This document shows positions 7,640 through 46,516 of a stretch of DNA of 49,297 nt, in pieces. This DNA is from Minisyncoccia bacterium. GTDB taxonomy: Bacteria > Patescibacteriota > Minisyncoccia > 2-02-FULL-40-12 > IGHO2-01-FULL-4-A. Under the pieces are notes generated by a model that did no database searches, was not told where the DNA came from, and worked only from the letters and a program-made list of their open reading frames with translations. The stretch is from positions 1-49,297 of the forward strand of contig JBEKBN010000007.1 of assembly GCA_050015375.1 (NCBI GenBank). The letters are read 5' to 3'. Position 1 is the first letter of the stretch, and every line of letters begins with the position of its first letter. Position numbers and translations under genes: made by a program.

Positions 7640-7848
7640 GGCTAATCCCAAGCGAGTCTCCTCAATCCCTGCGAACCCCGGTTGCTTCGGGCACGCTCAA
7701 AAGAGTGGATTGCACGGTTTGCGAGCAATATAATGGATAAAACACTGCGAGCAAAATCCACGCTTTTGAGCGAACAAGAAATCTCGCTGGGATTTCGAGT
7801 AGTGACCCAAAGGGACCGAGGGTGAGCCTGGTTGGGGATTGAGGGGGC
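7640..7848 (+). repeat. type-A structured repeat (GCACGG junction, TATAAT loop, TCGCTGGG-loop hairpin)
   Basis: Outer arms cctcaatccc (7660-7669)/gggattgagg (7835-7844). Helix cgctcaaaagagtggatt/aatccacgcttttgagcg. GCACGG at 7712-7717, TATAAT at 7729-7734, TCGCTGGG at 7784-7791. Ends 3 nt from the rpmA stop. Confidence 0.8.
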
Positions 7849-9921: not shown

Positions 9922-10425
9922 ATGGCATCAGACGAAAAACTCCCAGGGGACTACGTAGCGGGTTTTATCGATGGCGAGGGTTGTTTTTATCTTACTTATA
10001 GAAGTGAAAAAAAATACAGCCGAAAGGGCAGCCCAACCTATTATCGTTGGCTTCCATATTTTGCAATGACTTTAAGATTGGACGACATAGAAATTCTTCA
10101 TAAAATAAGAAATACACTTGGATGCGGAAATGTCTACAAATTAAGAAATAACAGTAAATGGGGGAGTCAAGCTTACTTTGGAATCCAAAATATAGACGAC
10201 CTTTATAACAAAATAATTCCGTTTTTTAAAAAATATCAACTCCGAGCAAAAAAAAGATTTGATTTCGAATTATGGTGTTCGGCTCTAAATATTTTACACG
10301 CGAACAAAATTCAAAAAAAATCGTGCTCTTTGAATGAAAACATGTTACTCAATAAAATAAGATTTAAAATGCGGATTTATAAAAGTGAGTTGAATAGGGG
10401 ATACAAGAACAACCCACAAGAATAA
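9922..10425 (+). CDS. free-standing single-motif LAGLIDADG homing endonuclease
   Basis: YVAGFIDGEGCFYL is the LAGLIDADG motif. At 167 aa it fits I-CreI-like homodimeric enzymes. No flanking intron or rRNA context. Confidence 0.85.
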   Translation: MASDEKLPGDYVAGFIDGEGCFYLTYRSEKKYSRKGSPTYYRWLPYFAMTLRLDDIEILHKIRNTLGCGNVYKLRNNSKWGSQAYFGIQNIDDLYNKIIPFFKKYQLRAKKRFDFELWCSALNILHANKIQKKSCSLNENMLLNKIRFKMRIYKSELNRGYKNNPQE

Positions 10426-17612: not shown

Positions 17613-18356
17613 ATGCAGGAAGAAAATGTTCTCGAAGTTCAAAATCTGTCCGTTGAGTTCAACGGCGGTTTGATCTTGGATAATTTGAATTTTTCGGTGA
17701 GGCGCGGGGAAGTTCTTGCTATCGTCGGTCCCAACGGCGCCGGAAAAACCGTTTTGTTCCGTTCGCTTCTTGATCTTATCCCCTACTCCGGCGAAATAGA
17801 TTGGAAGCCCGGGATCCGAATCGGTTATGTCCCGCAAAAATTATCCATTGAGCATAATTTTCCCTTGACGGTCAGGGAATTTTTGGAAATCAAATCTGCC
17901 GCTGGAGTTCGCTATTCCCATCACGATATTTTTCAAGCGCTGGAGTCGGTCGGCATCAAAACCGGCACCGACGAGAAACATCATCTTGAACATCACATTC
18001 TGAACCGGCCTTTGGGCAAACTTTCCGGCGGCGAACTTCAGCGGATCCTTATCGCTTGGTCAATGATCGGCAAACCCGATGTTTTGCTTTTTGACGAACC
18101 CACGGCTGGCATTGATGCCGGGGGCGAGGAAACCATTTATCAACTTCTCCACAAACTCCAAATGAGCGCGACGCTTACGATCTTAATGATCTCGCACGAT
18201 CTGAATATCGTTTATAAATATACCGACAATGTTCTTTGCCTGAATAAAAAAATGCTGGCTTTTGGAAGACCGAAAACCATTTTAAGCCAAGAAGGATTGG
18301 CGTCGCTTTATGGCGGCGAGACCGAAATAATCCGCCACGACCACGGTTACAATTAA
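17613..18356 (+). CDS. metal (Zn/Mn-type) ABC transporter ATP-binding protein
   Basis: GPNGAGKT, LSGGELQR, LLFDEP. Resembles ZnuC/MntB-type ATPases. Confidence 0.85.
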   Translation: MQEENVLEVQNLSVEFNGGLILDNLNFSVRRGEVLAIVGPNGAGKTVLFRSLLDLIPYSGEIDWKPGIRIGYVPQKLSIEHNFPLTVREFLEIKSAAGVRYSHHDIFQALESVGIKTGTDEKHHLEHHILNRPLGKLSGGELQRILIAWSMIGKPDVLLFDEPTAGIDAGGEETIYQLLHKLQMSATLTILMISHDLNIVYKYTDNVLCLNKKMLAFGRPKTILSQEGLASLYGGETEIIRHDHGYN

Positions 18357-18392
18357 TTCGTATATTCGTAAAAATTCGTAATTTCGTAGTAA
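18355..18392 (+). repeat. 38-nt ATTCGTA-repeat block, copy 1
   Basis: aattcgtatattcgtaaaaattcgtaatttcgtagtaa fills the stop-to-start gap. 37/38 identical to 35834..35871. Confidence 0.85.
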
Positions 18393-22352: not shown

Positions 22353-22556
22353 AGTAAGCTGGCGGTTGTTGTCTTGAGGGCGCTCATTTCTGTGAGCCCG
22401 AAGGCTTGGAGGGCGTGATTGCATGGCCTGGCAACATGAGAAAATGGTAAAATATTTCCTGCCATTTTCTCGTGTTGCCAGAATCCACAGAAATGAGCGA
22501 GCCGGAATTCTCGCTGGGAATTCCGGCGTCCCGAGAGATAATAGCTGCCAGCTAAA
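22353..22556 (+). repeat. type-A structured repeat filling the dnaK-dnaJ gap
   Basis: Outer arms agctggc/gccagct. Helix cgctcatttctgtg/cacagaaatgagcg. GCATGG at 22421-22426. Hairpin cctggcaacatgagaaaatgg/ccattttctcgtgttgccag. TCGCTGGG at 22511-22518, closed by ggaattc/gaattcc. Confidence 0.8.
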
Positions 22557-24448: not shown

Positions 24449-24458
24449 GATGATTTAT

Positions 24459-24622
24459 AAGCGAGCGGATGTTATTTCTAGGGCGCTCATTTCTGTGCGA
24501 TTGCACGGTTGGCGAGCAGTATAATGTCGGCGTAAGCCACTGCGAGCCAAATCCACAGAAATGAGCGAGTCGATTTCCTCGCTGGGGAAATTGACATCCC
24601 ATGAAATAACATCAGCGAGCTT
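24459..24622 (+). repeat. type-A structured repeat filling the grpE-dnaK gap
   Basis: Arms aagcgagcggatgttatttc/gaaataacatcagcgagctt. GCACGG at 24503-24508, TATAAT at 24520-24525, TCGCTGGG at 24579-24586. Confidence 0.8.
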
Positions 24623-31395: not shown

Positions 31396-31543
31396 AGCTC
31401 GCCAATATGGCTTTTGCGGACTTAGGAAATCCCAGCGAGATTTCCGTCATCCGGTTGTCGGATGCCGTTGTCGTTTTTTGATTACAAAAACCGAACCGTG
31501 CCAACGGCACCGACAACGGCCGCCCGAGCCATATTGGTGAGCT
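31396..31543 (-). repeat. type-A structured repeat (family sense on minus strand)
   Basis: Arms agctcgccaatatgg/ccatattggtgagct. CCCAGCGA at 31431-31438 and CCGTGC at 31496-31501. The reverse complement closely matches 42121-42225. Confidence 0.75.
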
Positions 31544-32910: not shown

Positions 32911-33135
32911 TATTTTTGACTTTCAATAATAATCCGGCGACTAGGCGAGGCGATTGTCTTTCTGGGCACGCTCAAAAGAGTGGATTGCATGGTTTGCGAG
33001 CAGTATAATGGACAAGACACTGCGAGCAAAATCCACGCTTTTGAGCGAACGAGAAATCTCGCTGGGATTTCGCGTGGTGACAAGAGAGATAATCGCCGAA
33101 GCTAGCCGGAGATTAAAAATGGAAAGTCAAAAATA
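32911..33135 (+). repeat. type-A structured repeat downstream of rplU
   Basis: Outer arms tatttttgactttc (32911-32924)/gaaagtcaaaaata (33122-33135) and ggcgattgtctt/gagataatcgcc. The core is about 94% identical to 7690-7810. GCATGG at 32987-32992, TATAAT at 33004-33009, TCGCTGGG at 33059-33066. Confidence 0.8.
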
Positions 33136-33842: not shown

Positions 33843-33978
33843 AACGCCACCTCCTTCCGTTTCCCCGCAATGCCCGCTTTGCCTTCGGAGCCAATGCGAG
33901 TTTTTAAATTATGAATCTAGCTCAATTATACCAGCCCCGCCAAAAAATCAAACTCCGAAAGTTCATAACTACGTAATA

Positions 33979-34223
33979 TGGGCAGCGCCAACCGGATTTG
34001 AACCGGTGTTACGTGGATGAGAACCACGCGTCTCCCGATTTGTCTGTGAATAGCTCAGAAACAAATCGAGAATCCTCGATTTTCATCAAATTTTTTAGCA
34101 CCGCCACCGGGATTCGAACCCGGGTTGCGTGGATGAGAACCACGTGTCCTAGACCAGGCTAGACGATAGCGGCATTAAAAAACTTGTGAAAATCAGGACT
34201 GGACCAGGCTAGACGATGGCGCC
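33979..34223 (-). pseudogene. tRNA-Glu(CUC) gene interrupted in the D arm by a 166-nt insertion
   Basis: 5' piece 34199-34223 is GGCGCCATCGTCTAGCCTGGTCCAG. 3' piece 33979-34032 is GACGCGTGG-TTCTCAT-CCACG-TAAC-ACCGGTTCAAATCCGGT-TGGCGCT-G-CCA. The acceptor halves pair (GGCGCCA/TGGCGCT) and joining the pieces restores the D stem. Confidence 0.7.
34099..34173 (-). tRNA. tRNA-Glu (anticodon CUC)
   Basis: GCCGCTA-TC-GTCTAGCCTGGTCTAGGAC-A-CGTGG-TTCTCAT-CCACG-CAAC-CCGGGTTCGAATCCCGG-TGGCGGT-G. Cloverleaf is complete; CCA is not encoded. Confidence 0.85.
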
Positions 34224-34289
34224 ATAGCAACAGAATAGCAGAATAATTTCCAATTTTCAATTTTTCTTAGAGAATCAAACAGCAAACAT

Positions 34290-34528
34290 ATCGACTCGCC
34301 GTTCGTGGCGTCTGTTGTCTCGAGGGCGCTCATTTCTGTGAGCCCGAAACTCCGGAATCTTGAGGATGAGGGCGTGATTGCATGGTCTGGAAACATCGGA
34401 AAGTTGTATAATATTTTCCTACAACTTTCCGATGTTTCCAGAATCCACAGAAATGAGCGAGACGATTTCCTCGCTGGGAAAATCGACGTCCCGAGAGGCA
34501 AAAGACGCCACGGCCATGCGAGAAATGC
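34290..34528 (+). repeat. type-A structured repeat downstream of murF
   Basis: Arms cgtggcgtct (34304-34313)/agacgccacg (34503-34512). GCATGG at 34380-34385. Hairpin ctggaaacatcggaaagttgta/tacaactttccgatgtttccag with a TATAAT loop (34407-34412). TCGCTGGG at 34471-34478. Confidence 0.8.
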
Positions 34529-35833: not shown

Positions 35834-35871
35834 AATTCGTATATTCGTAAAAATTCGTAACTTCGTAGTAA
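35834..35871 (+). repeat. 38-nt ATTCGTA-repeat block, copy 2
   Basis: aattcgtatattcgtaaaaattcgtaacttcgtagtaa abuts the ftsI stop. An inverted atacgaat at 35812-35819 pairs with 35835-35842. Confidence 0.85.
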
Positions 35872-39392: not shown

Positions 39393-39517
39393 GCGAAATT
39401 GTCCAAGAGCGAAGCGATTGGGTAACAATTTCAGCACCCAGCACATAACGAGTTATGTGCTGGGTAAGAATTTGTTTCCGTGCTCGTTTCGCTACGCTCA
39501 ACTGCGCTCGGACAAAT
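39393..39517 (-). repeat. type-C rod-like cassette, copy C2, abutting the mraZ ATG
   Basis: In gene sense: ATTTGTCCGAGCGCAGTTGAGCG..CACGGAAACAAATTC..ACCCAGCACATAACTCGTTATGTGCTGGGT..TGGACAATTTCGC-ATG. Confidence 0.75.
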
Positions 39518-39680
39518 GTCTTAGTAACTGATAGCTAACAGCCAGTAGTCCCGATGGCTTTCGCCATCGCAGATCCGCGATTTCGTTTTTGCGAAATCGG
39601 GAGATTTAATGGCAAAGAACAATTTTTTTGAAAAATCGCTACTCGCTGTTAACTATCAATTACCCGGCAATTTTTATTAG

Positions 39681-42077: not shown

Positions 42078-42270
42078 GAAAGTGAGCTTGTGAATCTCTG
42101 CGAACCGGGTTGTTTTCAGGGGCCGTTGTCGGTGCCGTTGGCATGGTTCGATTATTGTAATCAATTAATCGACAACGGCAACCGACAACCGGATGACGGA
42201 AATCTCGCTGGGATTTCCTAAGTCCCCGGAAAGCAATCCGGTGAGCCTGGTCCGGGATTCACAAGCGAGC
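42078..42270 (+). repeat. type-A structured repeat
   Basis: Arms gcttgtgaatc (42086-42096)/gattcacaagc (42256-42266). Helix ccgttgtcggtgccgttg/caacggcaaccgacaaccgg. GCATGG at 42141-42146 and TCGCTGGG at 42205-42212. Ends 2 nt from the stop of 42273..42746. Confidence 0.8.
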
Positions 42271-42746: not shown

Positions 42747-42886
42747 AGAATTGTCCGCGAGCTAGACGAAGTCGCAGCGAGCGGGAAACAATTCATGACC
42801 CGCCTAAATATGCGAAGCATAATTTTTGGCGGGTAAATAACTGTTTCCGTGCTCGGCTCACTTCGTTTGCCTGCGCTCGGACATTT
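42747..42886 (-). repeat. type-C rod-like cassette, copy C3, separating two halves of one regulator gene
   Basis: In gene sense: TAA-AT-AAATGTCCGAGCGCAGGC..CACGGAAACAGTT..ACCCGCC..GGCGGGT..GAATTGTTTCCCGCTCGCTGCG..CTAGCTCGCGGACAATTCT-ATG. Confidence 0.8.
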
Positions 42887-42888
42887 AT

Positions 42889-43077
42889 TTATTTCTGTTT
42901 TATCAACCCGATACCGACAAGTTTCTTTATTTCTCTTTTCACGACTTCGGGATCCTCTTGAACATGATCAGCCAGTTCTCGGACATTAAAACTGGCCGGC
43001 GCATTCCGAAAAATATACTTGAGTATTTTGACCCGCAGGTTCGAACCCAGCAGTTCCTCAAGGATTTTTTTTGACAT
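42889..43077 (-). CDS. proximal part of a split wHTH regulator (ArsR-like helix-turn-helix, 62 aa)
   Basis: LLGSNLRVKILKYIFRN..FNVRELADHVQEDPEVVKREIKKLVGIGLI ends right after the recognition helix. Confidence 0.6.
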   Translation of the reverse strand: MSKKILEELLGSNLRVKILKYIFRNAPASFNVRELADHVQEDPEVVKREIKKLVGIGLIKQK

Positions 43078-45890: not shown

Positions 45891-46037
45891 GCTAGAATTG
45901 TCTGCGAGCTAGCTTGTAAAGCGCAGCGAGTAGATAACAATTCTTGCACCCAGCACATATTTCGTGTTGCGAAATATGTGCTGGGTAAGCGACTGTTTCC
46001 GTGCTCGCTTCGCTTTGCTCAACTGCGCTCGGACATT
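45891..46037 (-). repeat. type-C rod-like cassette, copy C4, between rplJ and rplL
   Basis: In gene sense: AATGTCCGAGCGCAGTTGA(rplJ stop)GCAAAGCGAAGCGAGCACGGAAACAG..ACCCAGCACATATTTCGCAACACGAAATATGTGCTGGGT..GAATTGTTATC..CTAGCTCGCAGACAATTCTAGC-ATG. Confidence 0.8.
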
Positions 46038-46516
46038 CGACTTATTTGACCCAAGACATTCGCCAAACTCGACAGCGGATATTTCAGCAATCCCAGAAAT
46101 CTGGCGATCATCACATCTTTGGTTGGTAATTTGGCAAATTCGATGAGGTCTTTGTTGTCCAGTATTTTATCACCGAATATCGCGCTGAATAATTTCAACG
46201 CCGGGTTCTTCCGGGAAAATTCATAGACCGACTTGGCGGCGGCGGATACTTCTCCGTAACCAAAAACCACGCCCAGAGAGCCGTCATAGCCGAAAATATC
46301 TACTTTTCCATCCAGCGCCTTGTCAAGCAGTGTCTTTTTTTCGACGGCATATTCTGACTCGACGGCCCGCAAACTTCGTTTCAACGCCTGCATGCTTTTG
46401 ACGTTCAAACCCTTTTCCCCCGCTCTTGAAAATGAGGTAAAAACTGTCAATTTCGACTTCGCCAATTTCTCTTTCAACTTGGCTAATTCCTTCTTTTTTT
46501 GTTCGAATGATTTCAT
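46019..46516 (-). CDS. rplJ: 50S ribosomal protein L10
   Basis: MKSFEQKKKELAKLKEKLAKSKLTVFTSF..GLNVKSMQALKRSLR. The last 7 codons and the stop lie inside cassette C4. Confidence 0.9.
   Translation of the reverse strand: MKSFEQKKKELAKLKEKLAKSKLTVFTSFSRAGEKGLNVKSMQALKRSLRAVESEYAVEKKTLLDKALDGKVDIFGYDGSLGVVFGYGEVSAAAKSVYEFSRKNPALKLFSAIFGDKILDNKDLIEFAKLPTKDVMIARFLGLLKYPLSSLANVLGQISRMSERS

Follow-up and report, generated by a model that had tools for sequence, protein, structure and literature searches.

How is a tRNA gene to be understood when its D arm is interrupted by a second, intact tRNA gene? The question is raised by a locus on the minus strand of a 49,297-nt stretch of DNA from a Minisyncoccia bacterium (contig JBEKBN010000007.1, assembly GCA_050015375.1), the whole of which is hereafter called the window. 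The host is a bacterium of Patescibacteria, or the candidate phyla radiation (CPR), and its best protein matches are labelled Paceibacterota or Yanofskybacteria. Our comparative analysis suggests that a resident tRNA-Glu(CUC) gene has been disrupted by a non-autonomous, site-specific and probably mobile cassette, similar to the repetitive extragenic palindromic (REP) elements, which substitutes its own copy of the tRNA and leaves the outer halves as a relic. We assign to this explanation a probability of about 0.72.

A tRNA gene inside a tRNA gene

The region read at 33975-34260 contains, in the order of the minus strand, the 5' piece of an outer tRNA-Glu(CUC), an insert, the outer 3' piece and the letters CCCA. 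The insert is exactly 166 nt long (34198-34033) and separates tRNA positions 22 and 23 of the D arm. It consists of a left arm, an intact inner tRNA-Glu(CUC), a complementary right arm and a second hairpin. The outer 3' piece retains the complete anticodon arm with the CUC anticodon and the T arm (ACCGGUUCAAAUCCGGU). If joined between positions 22 and 23, the two outer pieces read GGCGCCAUCGUCUAGCCUGGUCCAG followed by GACGCGUGG across the junction, and constitute a flawless tRNA-Glu(CUC) with all stems intact and the conserved nucleotides present.

In the native sequence, ARAGORN and Rfam call only the inner tRNA (RF00005, 53.3 bits), and the outer 3' piece alone gives a partial Rfam tRNA match of 26.3 bits. 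After in silico removal of the insert (166 nt), the outer tRNA is also recognised by ARAGORN, as tRNA-Glu(CUC). A repeat alignment of the outer pieces with the inner tRNA is in register at 89% and 84% identity, with an overlap of 0 and a gap of 0. The two tRNAs differ at 11 of 75 positions (85% identity), and these differences include three double compensatory changes, written here as outer/inner: G-C/C-G at 2-71, A-U/C-G at 49-65 and C-G/G-C at 51-63. The 243-nt unit has a minimum free energy (MFE) fold of -101.9 kcal/mol, in which all four outer helices (acceptor, D, anticodon and T) form, and a long helix with the inner tRNA, together with the second hairpin, comes out of the outer D stem.

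The original prediction, made from the letters of the locus and its open reading frames (ORFs), had described a complete cloverleaf divided by 166 nt, an intact paralogous tRNA-Glu(CUC) at 34173-34099 with compensatory differences from the outer one, and its position on an arm helix that emerges from the outer D arm and is followed by another hairpin. All of these are reproduced by the tRNA searches, the alignment and the fold, and the coordinates are confirmed. It had also taken CCA to be encoded in the outer gene. This was mistaken: the 3' end reads TGGCGCT-G-CCCA, and the CCA within the terminal GCCCA is out of register and hence not encoded.

In many tRNA-Glu(CUC) genes of the clade, the acceptor stem ends in a G1-U72 wobble pair, with either G73 or A73. 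This pair is present in both tRNAs of the window (34223/33984 and 34173/34100) and in the tRNAs of six of the loci compared below (L024, L028, L016, L018, L009 and L015), and may be a lineage-specific identity feature of these genes.

State of the locus in relatives and other lineages

Relatives were sampled via homologues of MurF and L21, and their relatedness to the window was calibrated by RecR, L21, DnaB, FtsI and MurF. Two loci of the same species, L024 and L025, come from two Joint Genome Institute (JGI) samples; protein identity to the window is 99% for L21, 97% for the DUF378 protein and 93-94% for MurF, and the downstream flank is 98% identical at the DNA level over 925 nt. Both carry the outer tRNA contiguous and uninterrupted, which constitutes an exact empty site with no duplicated base. 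Positions 1159-1223 of L024 match the window up to 34199 (98.5% identity, including the promoter and the outer 5' piece), and positions 1224-1274 match 34032-33982 of the window (96% identity, the outer 3' piece). The 5' piece matches the L024 gene at 25 of 26 positions, and the window outer tRNA differs from that gene by three changes, at the tolerant positions 20b, 26 and 57. Comparison of the filled and empty alleles places the insert between ..CYAG and GAC... Judged by these alignments, the insertion is the 166 nt, and the outer tRNA is the resident gene of a conserved locus, ftsI-murF-tRNA-Glu-L21.

The nearest distinct relative, L027 (RecR 81%, L21 84% and DnaB 88% identity), has a 167-nt insert at the identical position of the D arm. 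The left arm is identical to that of the window at 23 of 25 positions, and the right arm with the start of the second hairpin at 38 of 39; the total is 61/64, compared with approximately 77% identity in the DNA around the insert (binomial P about 7e-5). The outer gene of L027 is dead, since its D stem contains a 20-nt perfect palindrome (1521-1540, CCTGCCTGCCGGCAGGCAGG) and its acceptor pairs at only 4 of 7 positions. The murF gene of L027 (170-1489) is only 39% identical to that of the window, against 81-88% for the adjacent end of ftsI, recR, L21 and dnaB; a divergent copy has apparently taken the place of this gene, which is the left neighbour of the tRNA locus.

The intermediate relatives L016, L017 and L028 have a plain tRNA-Glu(CUC), and two others, L018 and L023, have a complete tRNA followed by a different insert. 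In the distant L015 (about 44-58% identity), which reproduces the whole synteny of the window, the D-arm site is filled again. The arms of this insert have diverged except at their termini, and the outer gene is decayed, with the anticodon stem and the 5' strand of the T stem lost. The D-arm site is thus filled in the window, L027 and L015 and plain in L024, L016, L017, L018, L023 and L028; with rising distance from the window its state is filled, empty, filled, five times empty and filled. This patchy distribution, together with near-identical arms across about 23% DNA divergence, points to repeated site-specific gain or to precise loss of the insert, that is, to mobility. Since the outer gene of the window is 96% identical to the intact gene of L024 and the outer genes of L027 and L015 are degraded, the insertion in the window must be recent, and therefore no function is needed to explain its flawless outer cloverleaf.

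The same tRNA gene is the target of another type of insertion. In L024/L025, L018/L019 and L023, the complete tRNA-Glu(CUC) is followed by a hairpin-rich insert of 140-165 nt with direct repeats of 16-18 nt on either side, which comprise the tRNA 3' end from within the T loop onward. The inserts of L018 and L023 are homologous and share GGGATGAGAA..GGAGCG..CCGCGAG. Given this signature of classical site-specific integration, the second type has the appearance of a miniature integrative element or of an att-type scar. At the T-loop site the window allele is empty, so that two alleles of one species each bear a different self-compensating insertion. From this pattern, tRNA-Glu(CUC) would seem to be needed, with insertions surviving only if they spare a working copy.

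Features of the nested locus and of neighbouring or related insertions (window coordinates unless a locus is named)
Feature	Position	Strand	Remarks
Outer tRNA-Glu(CUC), 5' piece	34199-34223	-	25 nt; 5' strand of the acceptor, 5' strand of the D stem and D loop, to position 22
Left arm, TCCTGATTTTCACAAGTTTTTTAAT	34174-34198	-	pairs with the right arm; leader of the inner tRNA; 23/25 identical to L027
Inner (cargo) tRNA-Glu(CUC)	34099-34173	-	intact, CCA not encoded; ARAGORN and Rfam RF00005
Right arm, CTAAAAAATTTGATGAAAATCGAGGA	34073-34098	-	complement of the left arm; trailer of the inner tRNA; 26/26 identical to L027
Second hairpin, TTCTCGATTTGTTTCTG...CAGACAAATCGGGA	34033-34072	-	stems kept in L027
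Outer tRNA-Glu(CUC), 3' piece	33983-34032	-	50 nt; position 23 to the discriminator G73
Promoter-like site, TTGAAA-17-TATTCT	34232-34260	-	TG upstream; ends 8 nt before the outer G1
Second insert type, after a complete tRNA	L024 1259-1439 (also L025); L018 5518-5693; L023 5607-5780		
Palindromic element similar to miniature inverted-repeat transposable elements	34301-34510	.	between murF and the tRNA promoter; unrelated to the nested unit

Nested tRNAs were also found in more distant genomes by a search pattern of two Glu-type D arms closer than a tRNA length (24-54 nt apart, with a long D loop). One nested locus was found among species-representative genomes, in a Harrisonbacteria metagenome-assembled genome (L005), and others on ten metagenome contigs that represent four further lineages (the L006 group, L009, L013 and L015). 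Counting L027, nested units are known in six other lineages from other samples. All of them are located downstream of ftsI-murF wherever upstream sequence is available, that is, in all except the truncated L013. They share the order of outer 5' piece, arm, inner tRNA-Glu, complementary arm with or without further hairpins, and outer 3' piece, and each nested locus that is complete has an intact inner tRNA (53-61 bits in Rfam). The L013 contig ends inside the inner tRNA, with the right arm and the outer 3' piece beyond its end, and gives no ARAGORN call. The anticodon loop of this inner tRNA reads CTTTCAC, and the cargo of L013 thus appears to be Glu(UUC), not Glu(CUC). The nested architecture is real, recurrent and unusual.

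The window, L027 and L015 have the break point in the D arm, between positions 22 and 23; in L005, L006, L009 and L013 it is in the anticodon loop. The cassette stem of L006 is an extension of the outer anticodon stem, and in L009 and L005 the cassette replaces the loop, so that these outer tRNAs have no anticodon. The D-arm insert is preceded by CCAG in the window and by CTAG in L027 and L015, only three cases, and the flanks in the anticodon-loop class are different. Several of the loci carry additional hairpins: two lie between acceptor position 7 and position 8 of the outer tRNA in L009 (340-410), one of about 270 nt follows the anticodon-stem remnant in L005 (6496-6766), and one of about 265 nt separates the promoter from the tRNA in L023 (5280-5545).

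The insert of the window is non-coding, with no integrase within it, and its flanking genes are murF and a DUF378 gene. Its termini are the inverted repeats TCCTGAT...ATCGGGA, and its arms pair over approximately 25 nt; the pairing is perfect over 22 nt in L015 and L005. Like the arms, the second hairpin belongs to the TCCNCGATT..AATCGNGGA hairpin family, of which it is a cargo-less member; hairpins in L009 and L027 are further members. A standalone 29-nt hairpin, TCCCGATTTCGCAAAAACGAAATCGCGGA, with the same termini as the insert arms, is located at 39574-39602, upstream of mraZ in a divergent intergenic region, and appears to be another cargo-less member. Shared TCCCG...CGGGA termini were considered as proof of one family across all loci and rejected as such, since in L006 these 5 bp are the outer anticodon stem (27-31/39-43) and the similarity may partly be a coincidence.

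The cargo tRNA has a composite relationship to resident genes. Its positions 8-45 are identical to the resident gene of L024 (38/38), and its acceptor stem is that of the L018 tRNA gene. Such a mixture suggests that cargo and resident tRNA-Glu genes have undergone gene conversion with each other, in which case the cargo would be exchangeable.

A proposed mechanism and its rivals

The site TTGAAA-17-TATTCT is the sole promoter-like site placed to drive the nested unit, and it is also present upstream of the uninterrupted L024 gene. A second promoter-like match would start inside the inner tRNA, and no usable promoter for the inner tRNA was found. L015 has the consensus TTGAAA-17-TATAAT at the equivalent place, and, wherever sequence was read, the nested units are preceded by a promoter and followed by a terminator. 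The gene for GluRS is present in the window. As inferred from these sequences, the cassette is built from REP-like hairpins, has the termini TCCYGAT...ATCGGGA and has no promoter of its own.

We propose that the resident promoter would transcribe the outer 5' piece, the arm, the inner tRNA, the second arm, the hairpin and the outer 3' piece as one RNA. RNase III could first cleave the leader-trailer helix of about 25 bp, and RNase P, a 3' endonuclease and the CCA-adding enzyme would then release the inner tRNA, as expected from standard bacterial tRNA maturation. The inner tRNA would become the working tRNA-Glu(CUC) and the outer halves would be discarded as by-products. The replacement tRNA would thereby neutralise the harm of target disruption, with the outer halves still pristine in the window through recency and decayed in lineages with an older insertion. 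The enzyme that moves the cassette could be an HUH/Y1 transposase acting on the hairpins or, equally possibly, a homing-type endonuclease followed by repair from a filled allele. The absence of a target duplication and the reliance on hairpins fit the HUH/Y1 chemistry of the IS200/IS605 type. That the gene was disrupted by a palindromic element bearing a tRNA was one of the two options in the original prediction, and it is this part that agrees with the empty site in the same-species strain, the decay in L027 and L015 and the REP-like hairpin arms. The other part, an intron-like or spliced outer tRNA, is not supported, for the reasons given below.

Candidate enzymes and vectors were searched for around the nested loci. 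L009 has, approximately 180 nt downstream of its nested unit, a gene for a Y1 transposase of the IS200/IS605 family (708-1052; PF01797, E=1e-19; NF033573, 72.5 bits) with long hairpins in front of it. Its assignment to the REP-associated tyrosine transposases (RAYT) was rejected, as the RAYT model scores only 19.9, which leaves it a classical IS200/IS605 type. A tblastn search with this TnpA gave no match in the window or in 10 other loci. The window contains a free-standing LAGLIDADG ORF (9922-10425, plus strand, 167 aa; PF00961, E=4.6e-22), around which no rRNA gene, intron or intein context was detected; nothing ties this ORF to the tRNA site. A viral vector was discarded, as the nested pattern had no match in viral contigs. 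An 18-mer of the arm occurs in one IMG/VR contig inside a 2056-aa phage ORF with no tRNA, and is a chance match. Phage and plasmid collections gave only generic similarity to tRNA-Glu, and vectors of this kind were likewise rejected.

Several observations weigh against the cassette explanation. The long arms have no second copy in the 49-kb window, in which only the short hairpin at 39574-39602 represents the same family (others are in other loci), and no transposase or integrase was found by Pfam among the 40 largest ORFs of the window; the argument for mobility thus comes from the distribution. The apparent restriction to tRNA-Glu is partly an ascertainment effect, because the search pattern required Glu D arms. 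The cargo tRNAs of the window and L027 are identical at only 59 of 76 positions despite the near-identical arms. Recent transfer of the whole element does not predict such divergent cargo, and cargo exchange or gene conversion must be invoked. Finally, the outer tRNAs of L006, L009 and L005 keep their acceptor, D and T stems intact, with compensatory changes between loci, and this could mean selection on the outer scaffold, not just recency.

That last observation leads to the strongest of the rival explanations, a functional tRNA-like scaffold whose outer acceptor, D and T domains help to express the inner tRNA, the nesting being kept by selection. We consider it unlikely, as we do the particular possibility that such a scaffold protects the transcript or recruits RNase P, RNase Z or the CCA-adding enzyme. 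It would account for acceptor pairing at 7/7 positions with different sequences in the window, L006, L009 and L005, the last three of which have no outer anticodon loop, for the appearance of L006 as a tRNA with its anticodon loop swapped for an extended stem bearing the inner tRNA, and for the reliance of the inner tRNA on the outer promoter. It does not sit well with the broken outer tRNAs of L027 and L015, where the inner tRNA is intact, or with plain tRNA-Glu genes as the commonest state of the locus, and the compensatory differences may predate independent insertions. Still less probable is a true nested gene for two tRNAs, in which the transcript also yields a second product from the outer halves, held together by the arms and either ligated, for example by RtcB, or working as a non-covalent split tRNA. 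The original prediction had left room for such processing of an intron-like D-arm insert. The arms would indeed keep the halves together, and the outer tRNA of the window is flawless, with its changes relative to L024 confined to tolerant positions; however, recency is a sufficient explanation of this given the empty site in the same species. The host is a bacterium, and no bulge-helix-bulge (3-4-3) motif is present at the junctions in the MFE folds, in which the ends of the insert are continuous helices abutting the D stem. Rfam, used at gathering and permissive thresholds on the window and nine related loci, detected only tRNA and no group I or group II intron or ribozyme, and with 75 of its 166 nt being tRNA the insert is too small for a group I ribozyme. 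The 40 largest ORFs of the window include none with an RtcB or splicing-endonuclease domain. In most of the other nested loci the outer tRNA lacks its anticodon loop or is broken: both homologous outer genes, in L027 and in L015, are dead, and an outer anticodon is absent from the anticodon-loop class.

A local rearrangement, in which a decayed tandem triplication or duplication of tRNA-Glu with palindromic spacers leaves two stumps around a surviving copy, is in our view as improbable as the two-tRNA gene. Although the inner and outer tRNAs are paralogous (85% identity) and the identity of the inner core to the resident gene of L024 indicates recombination between copies, the stumps abut exactly between positions 22 and 23 with no overlap or gap, and when joined they match the gene of the sister strain (25/26 for the 5' piece, 96% for the 3' piece). 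Both the junction and the arm sequences are found again in L027 and L015. A simple tandem pair in relatives, which according to the original prediction would reduce the locus to a decayed duplication, was not found, and no tandem intermediate was seen in any relative examined. An artefact of assembly or binning that joined reads of two tRNA-Glu genes has hardly any chance of being correct. Repeats of tRNA genes can mislead assemblers, and a Logan assembly does break near the locus, but the break is at the upstream perfect palindrome, outside the tRNA; the independent Logan contig L004 covers the entire nested unit at 100% identity, and homologous nested units occur in the six other lineages.

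Related systems, genomic setting and meaning

The self-compensating cassette has features in common with several known classes of elements. Integrative elements that use a tyrosine recombinase and target tRNA genes, the sublocations of which were reportedly reviewed by Williams in 2002, likewise leave a complete tRNA, with the incoming DNA bringing a replacement for part of it, a 3' segment. Unlike them, the insert of the window has no direct repeat (att core), no hybrid tRNA and no integrase; it carries a whole tRNA, is located in the D arm and has only 166 bp. Our full-text literature searches returned no description of a bacterial tRNA gene interrupted by a tRNA-bearing element, and the nearest discussions were those of archaeal intron transposition and CPR rRNA introns (PMC10714607).

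REP sequences, their hairpin doublets (REPINs) and palindromic elements derived from IS200/IS605 (PATEs) are mobilised by Y1/HUH transposases (PMC3733652, PMC8049555), and REPs are tagged by GTAG or CGTC at the end of the palindrome (PMC3733652). The cassette resembles them in being short, non-coding, hairpin-forming and strain-variable, with precise absence alleles and no target-site duplication. The hairpin family of its arms is small and includes standalone copies, and an IS200/IS605 transposase is located beside the L009 unit. In contrast to REPs, which are extragenic and numerous, the cassette is inside an RNA gene, is single-copy in 49 kb and has a functional gene in its loop, and its arm termini, TCCYGAT and ATCGGGA, have no GTAG or CGTC tag. 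It shares terminal inverted repeats with MITEs (miniature inverted-repeat transposable elements), which derive from DDE transposases, but comparison of the window with L024 reveals no target-site duplication.

In Archaea, non-canonical tRNA introns, their transposition and split tRNA genes have been described (Fujishima et al. 2010 and work of the Kanai laboratory, as presented in PMC10714607; PMC4390854; PMC3218864). As outlined there, they are similar in that the break is outside position 37/38 and may be in the D arm, the intervening sequence is mobile, and complementary leader and trailer sequences join the halves. The archaeal cases so described need a bulge-helix-bulge and a splicing endonuclease and regenerate the interrupted tRNA, whereas here the host is a bacterium, the interrupted tRNA is apparently abandoned and the insert is itself a tRNA. 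Bacterial group I introns of tRNA genes also avoid harm to the host and are patchy by lineage, and four of our related loci share with them the position in the anticodon loop. They differ in that harm is avoided by self-splicing and not by a spare gene, and the insert of the window is in the D arm. Unlike in split or permuted tRNA genes, both halves are in order within one promoter-driven unit.

An engineered counterpart is the 'tRNA scaffold' for expression of recombinant RNA, said to have been developed by Ponchon and Dardel. In L006, L009 and L005, as in that scaffold, the tRNA body bears a stem with an RNA on it in place of its anticodon loop; the differences are that these loci are natural and that their cargo is a tRNA predicted to be cut out by RNase P and RNase Z. 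Judged on its sequence features, the cassette is a palindromic insertion of the MITE/REPIN type combined with the logic of restoring the target tRNA, and it departs from each of these families in a defining feature.

The locus is embedded in a conserved gene neighbourhood, with mraZ, rsmH, ftsI and murF upstream and the DUF378 gene, L21, recR and dnaB downstream. The MITE-like element in the spacer between murF and the tRNA promoter includes a perfect 23-nt inverted repeat (34386-34408/34420-34442). It represents a family of approximately 200 nt, other copies of which are located at about 22355-22550 and at 24458-24618 in spacers of the hrcA-grpE-dnaK-dnaJ operon. In the sister strain L024 this spacer contains a member of another palindromic family instead, which indicates that such elements are active at the strain level.

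Other dispersed repeats were observed at 7689-7806 and 32964-33081, at 31397-31521 and 42121-42246 (inverted), at 39408-39523, 42818-42892 and 45920-46044, at 612-694 and 1012-1094, and at 18355-18392 and 35834-35871. These families have 83-97% identity, many of them are palindromic, and they occupy intergenic spacers of a small gene-dense genome. The tRNA-Val gene of the window is ordinary, so the nested arrangement does not extend to that gene.

If the cassette explanation is correct, the locus represents an undescribed insertion strategy of bacteria, in which an element hits an apparently needed RNA gene and pays with a complete spare copy expressed from the promoter of its victim. Such cassettes may constitute a family of selfish elements of CPR bacteria that are specific for tRNA genes, spread by replacing the tRNA that they destroy and can swap their cargo. 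The loci provide bacterial before-and-after cases, at the strain level, of tRNA interruption in the D arm and in the anticodon loop, and are relevant to the old debate on the origin of tRNA introns and split tRNA genes from mobile elements. The reading of the locus as a bacterial D-arm tRNA intron or split tRNA is unlikely; if the outer halves were nonetheless rejoined or acted as a split tRNA, the locus would give Bacteria their first case of a split or spliced D-arm tRNA. Nested loci are mis-annotated, as the outer gene is invisible to tRNA finders, and the counts of tRNA genes in CPR genomes are affected. The natural topology of a tRNA on a stem inside a tRNA body mirrors that of the engineered tRNA scaffolds.

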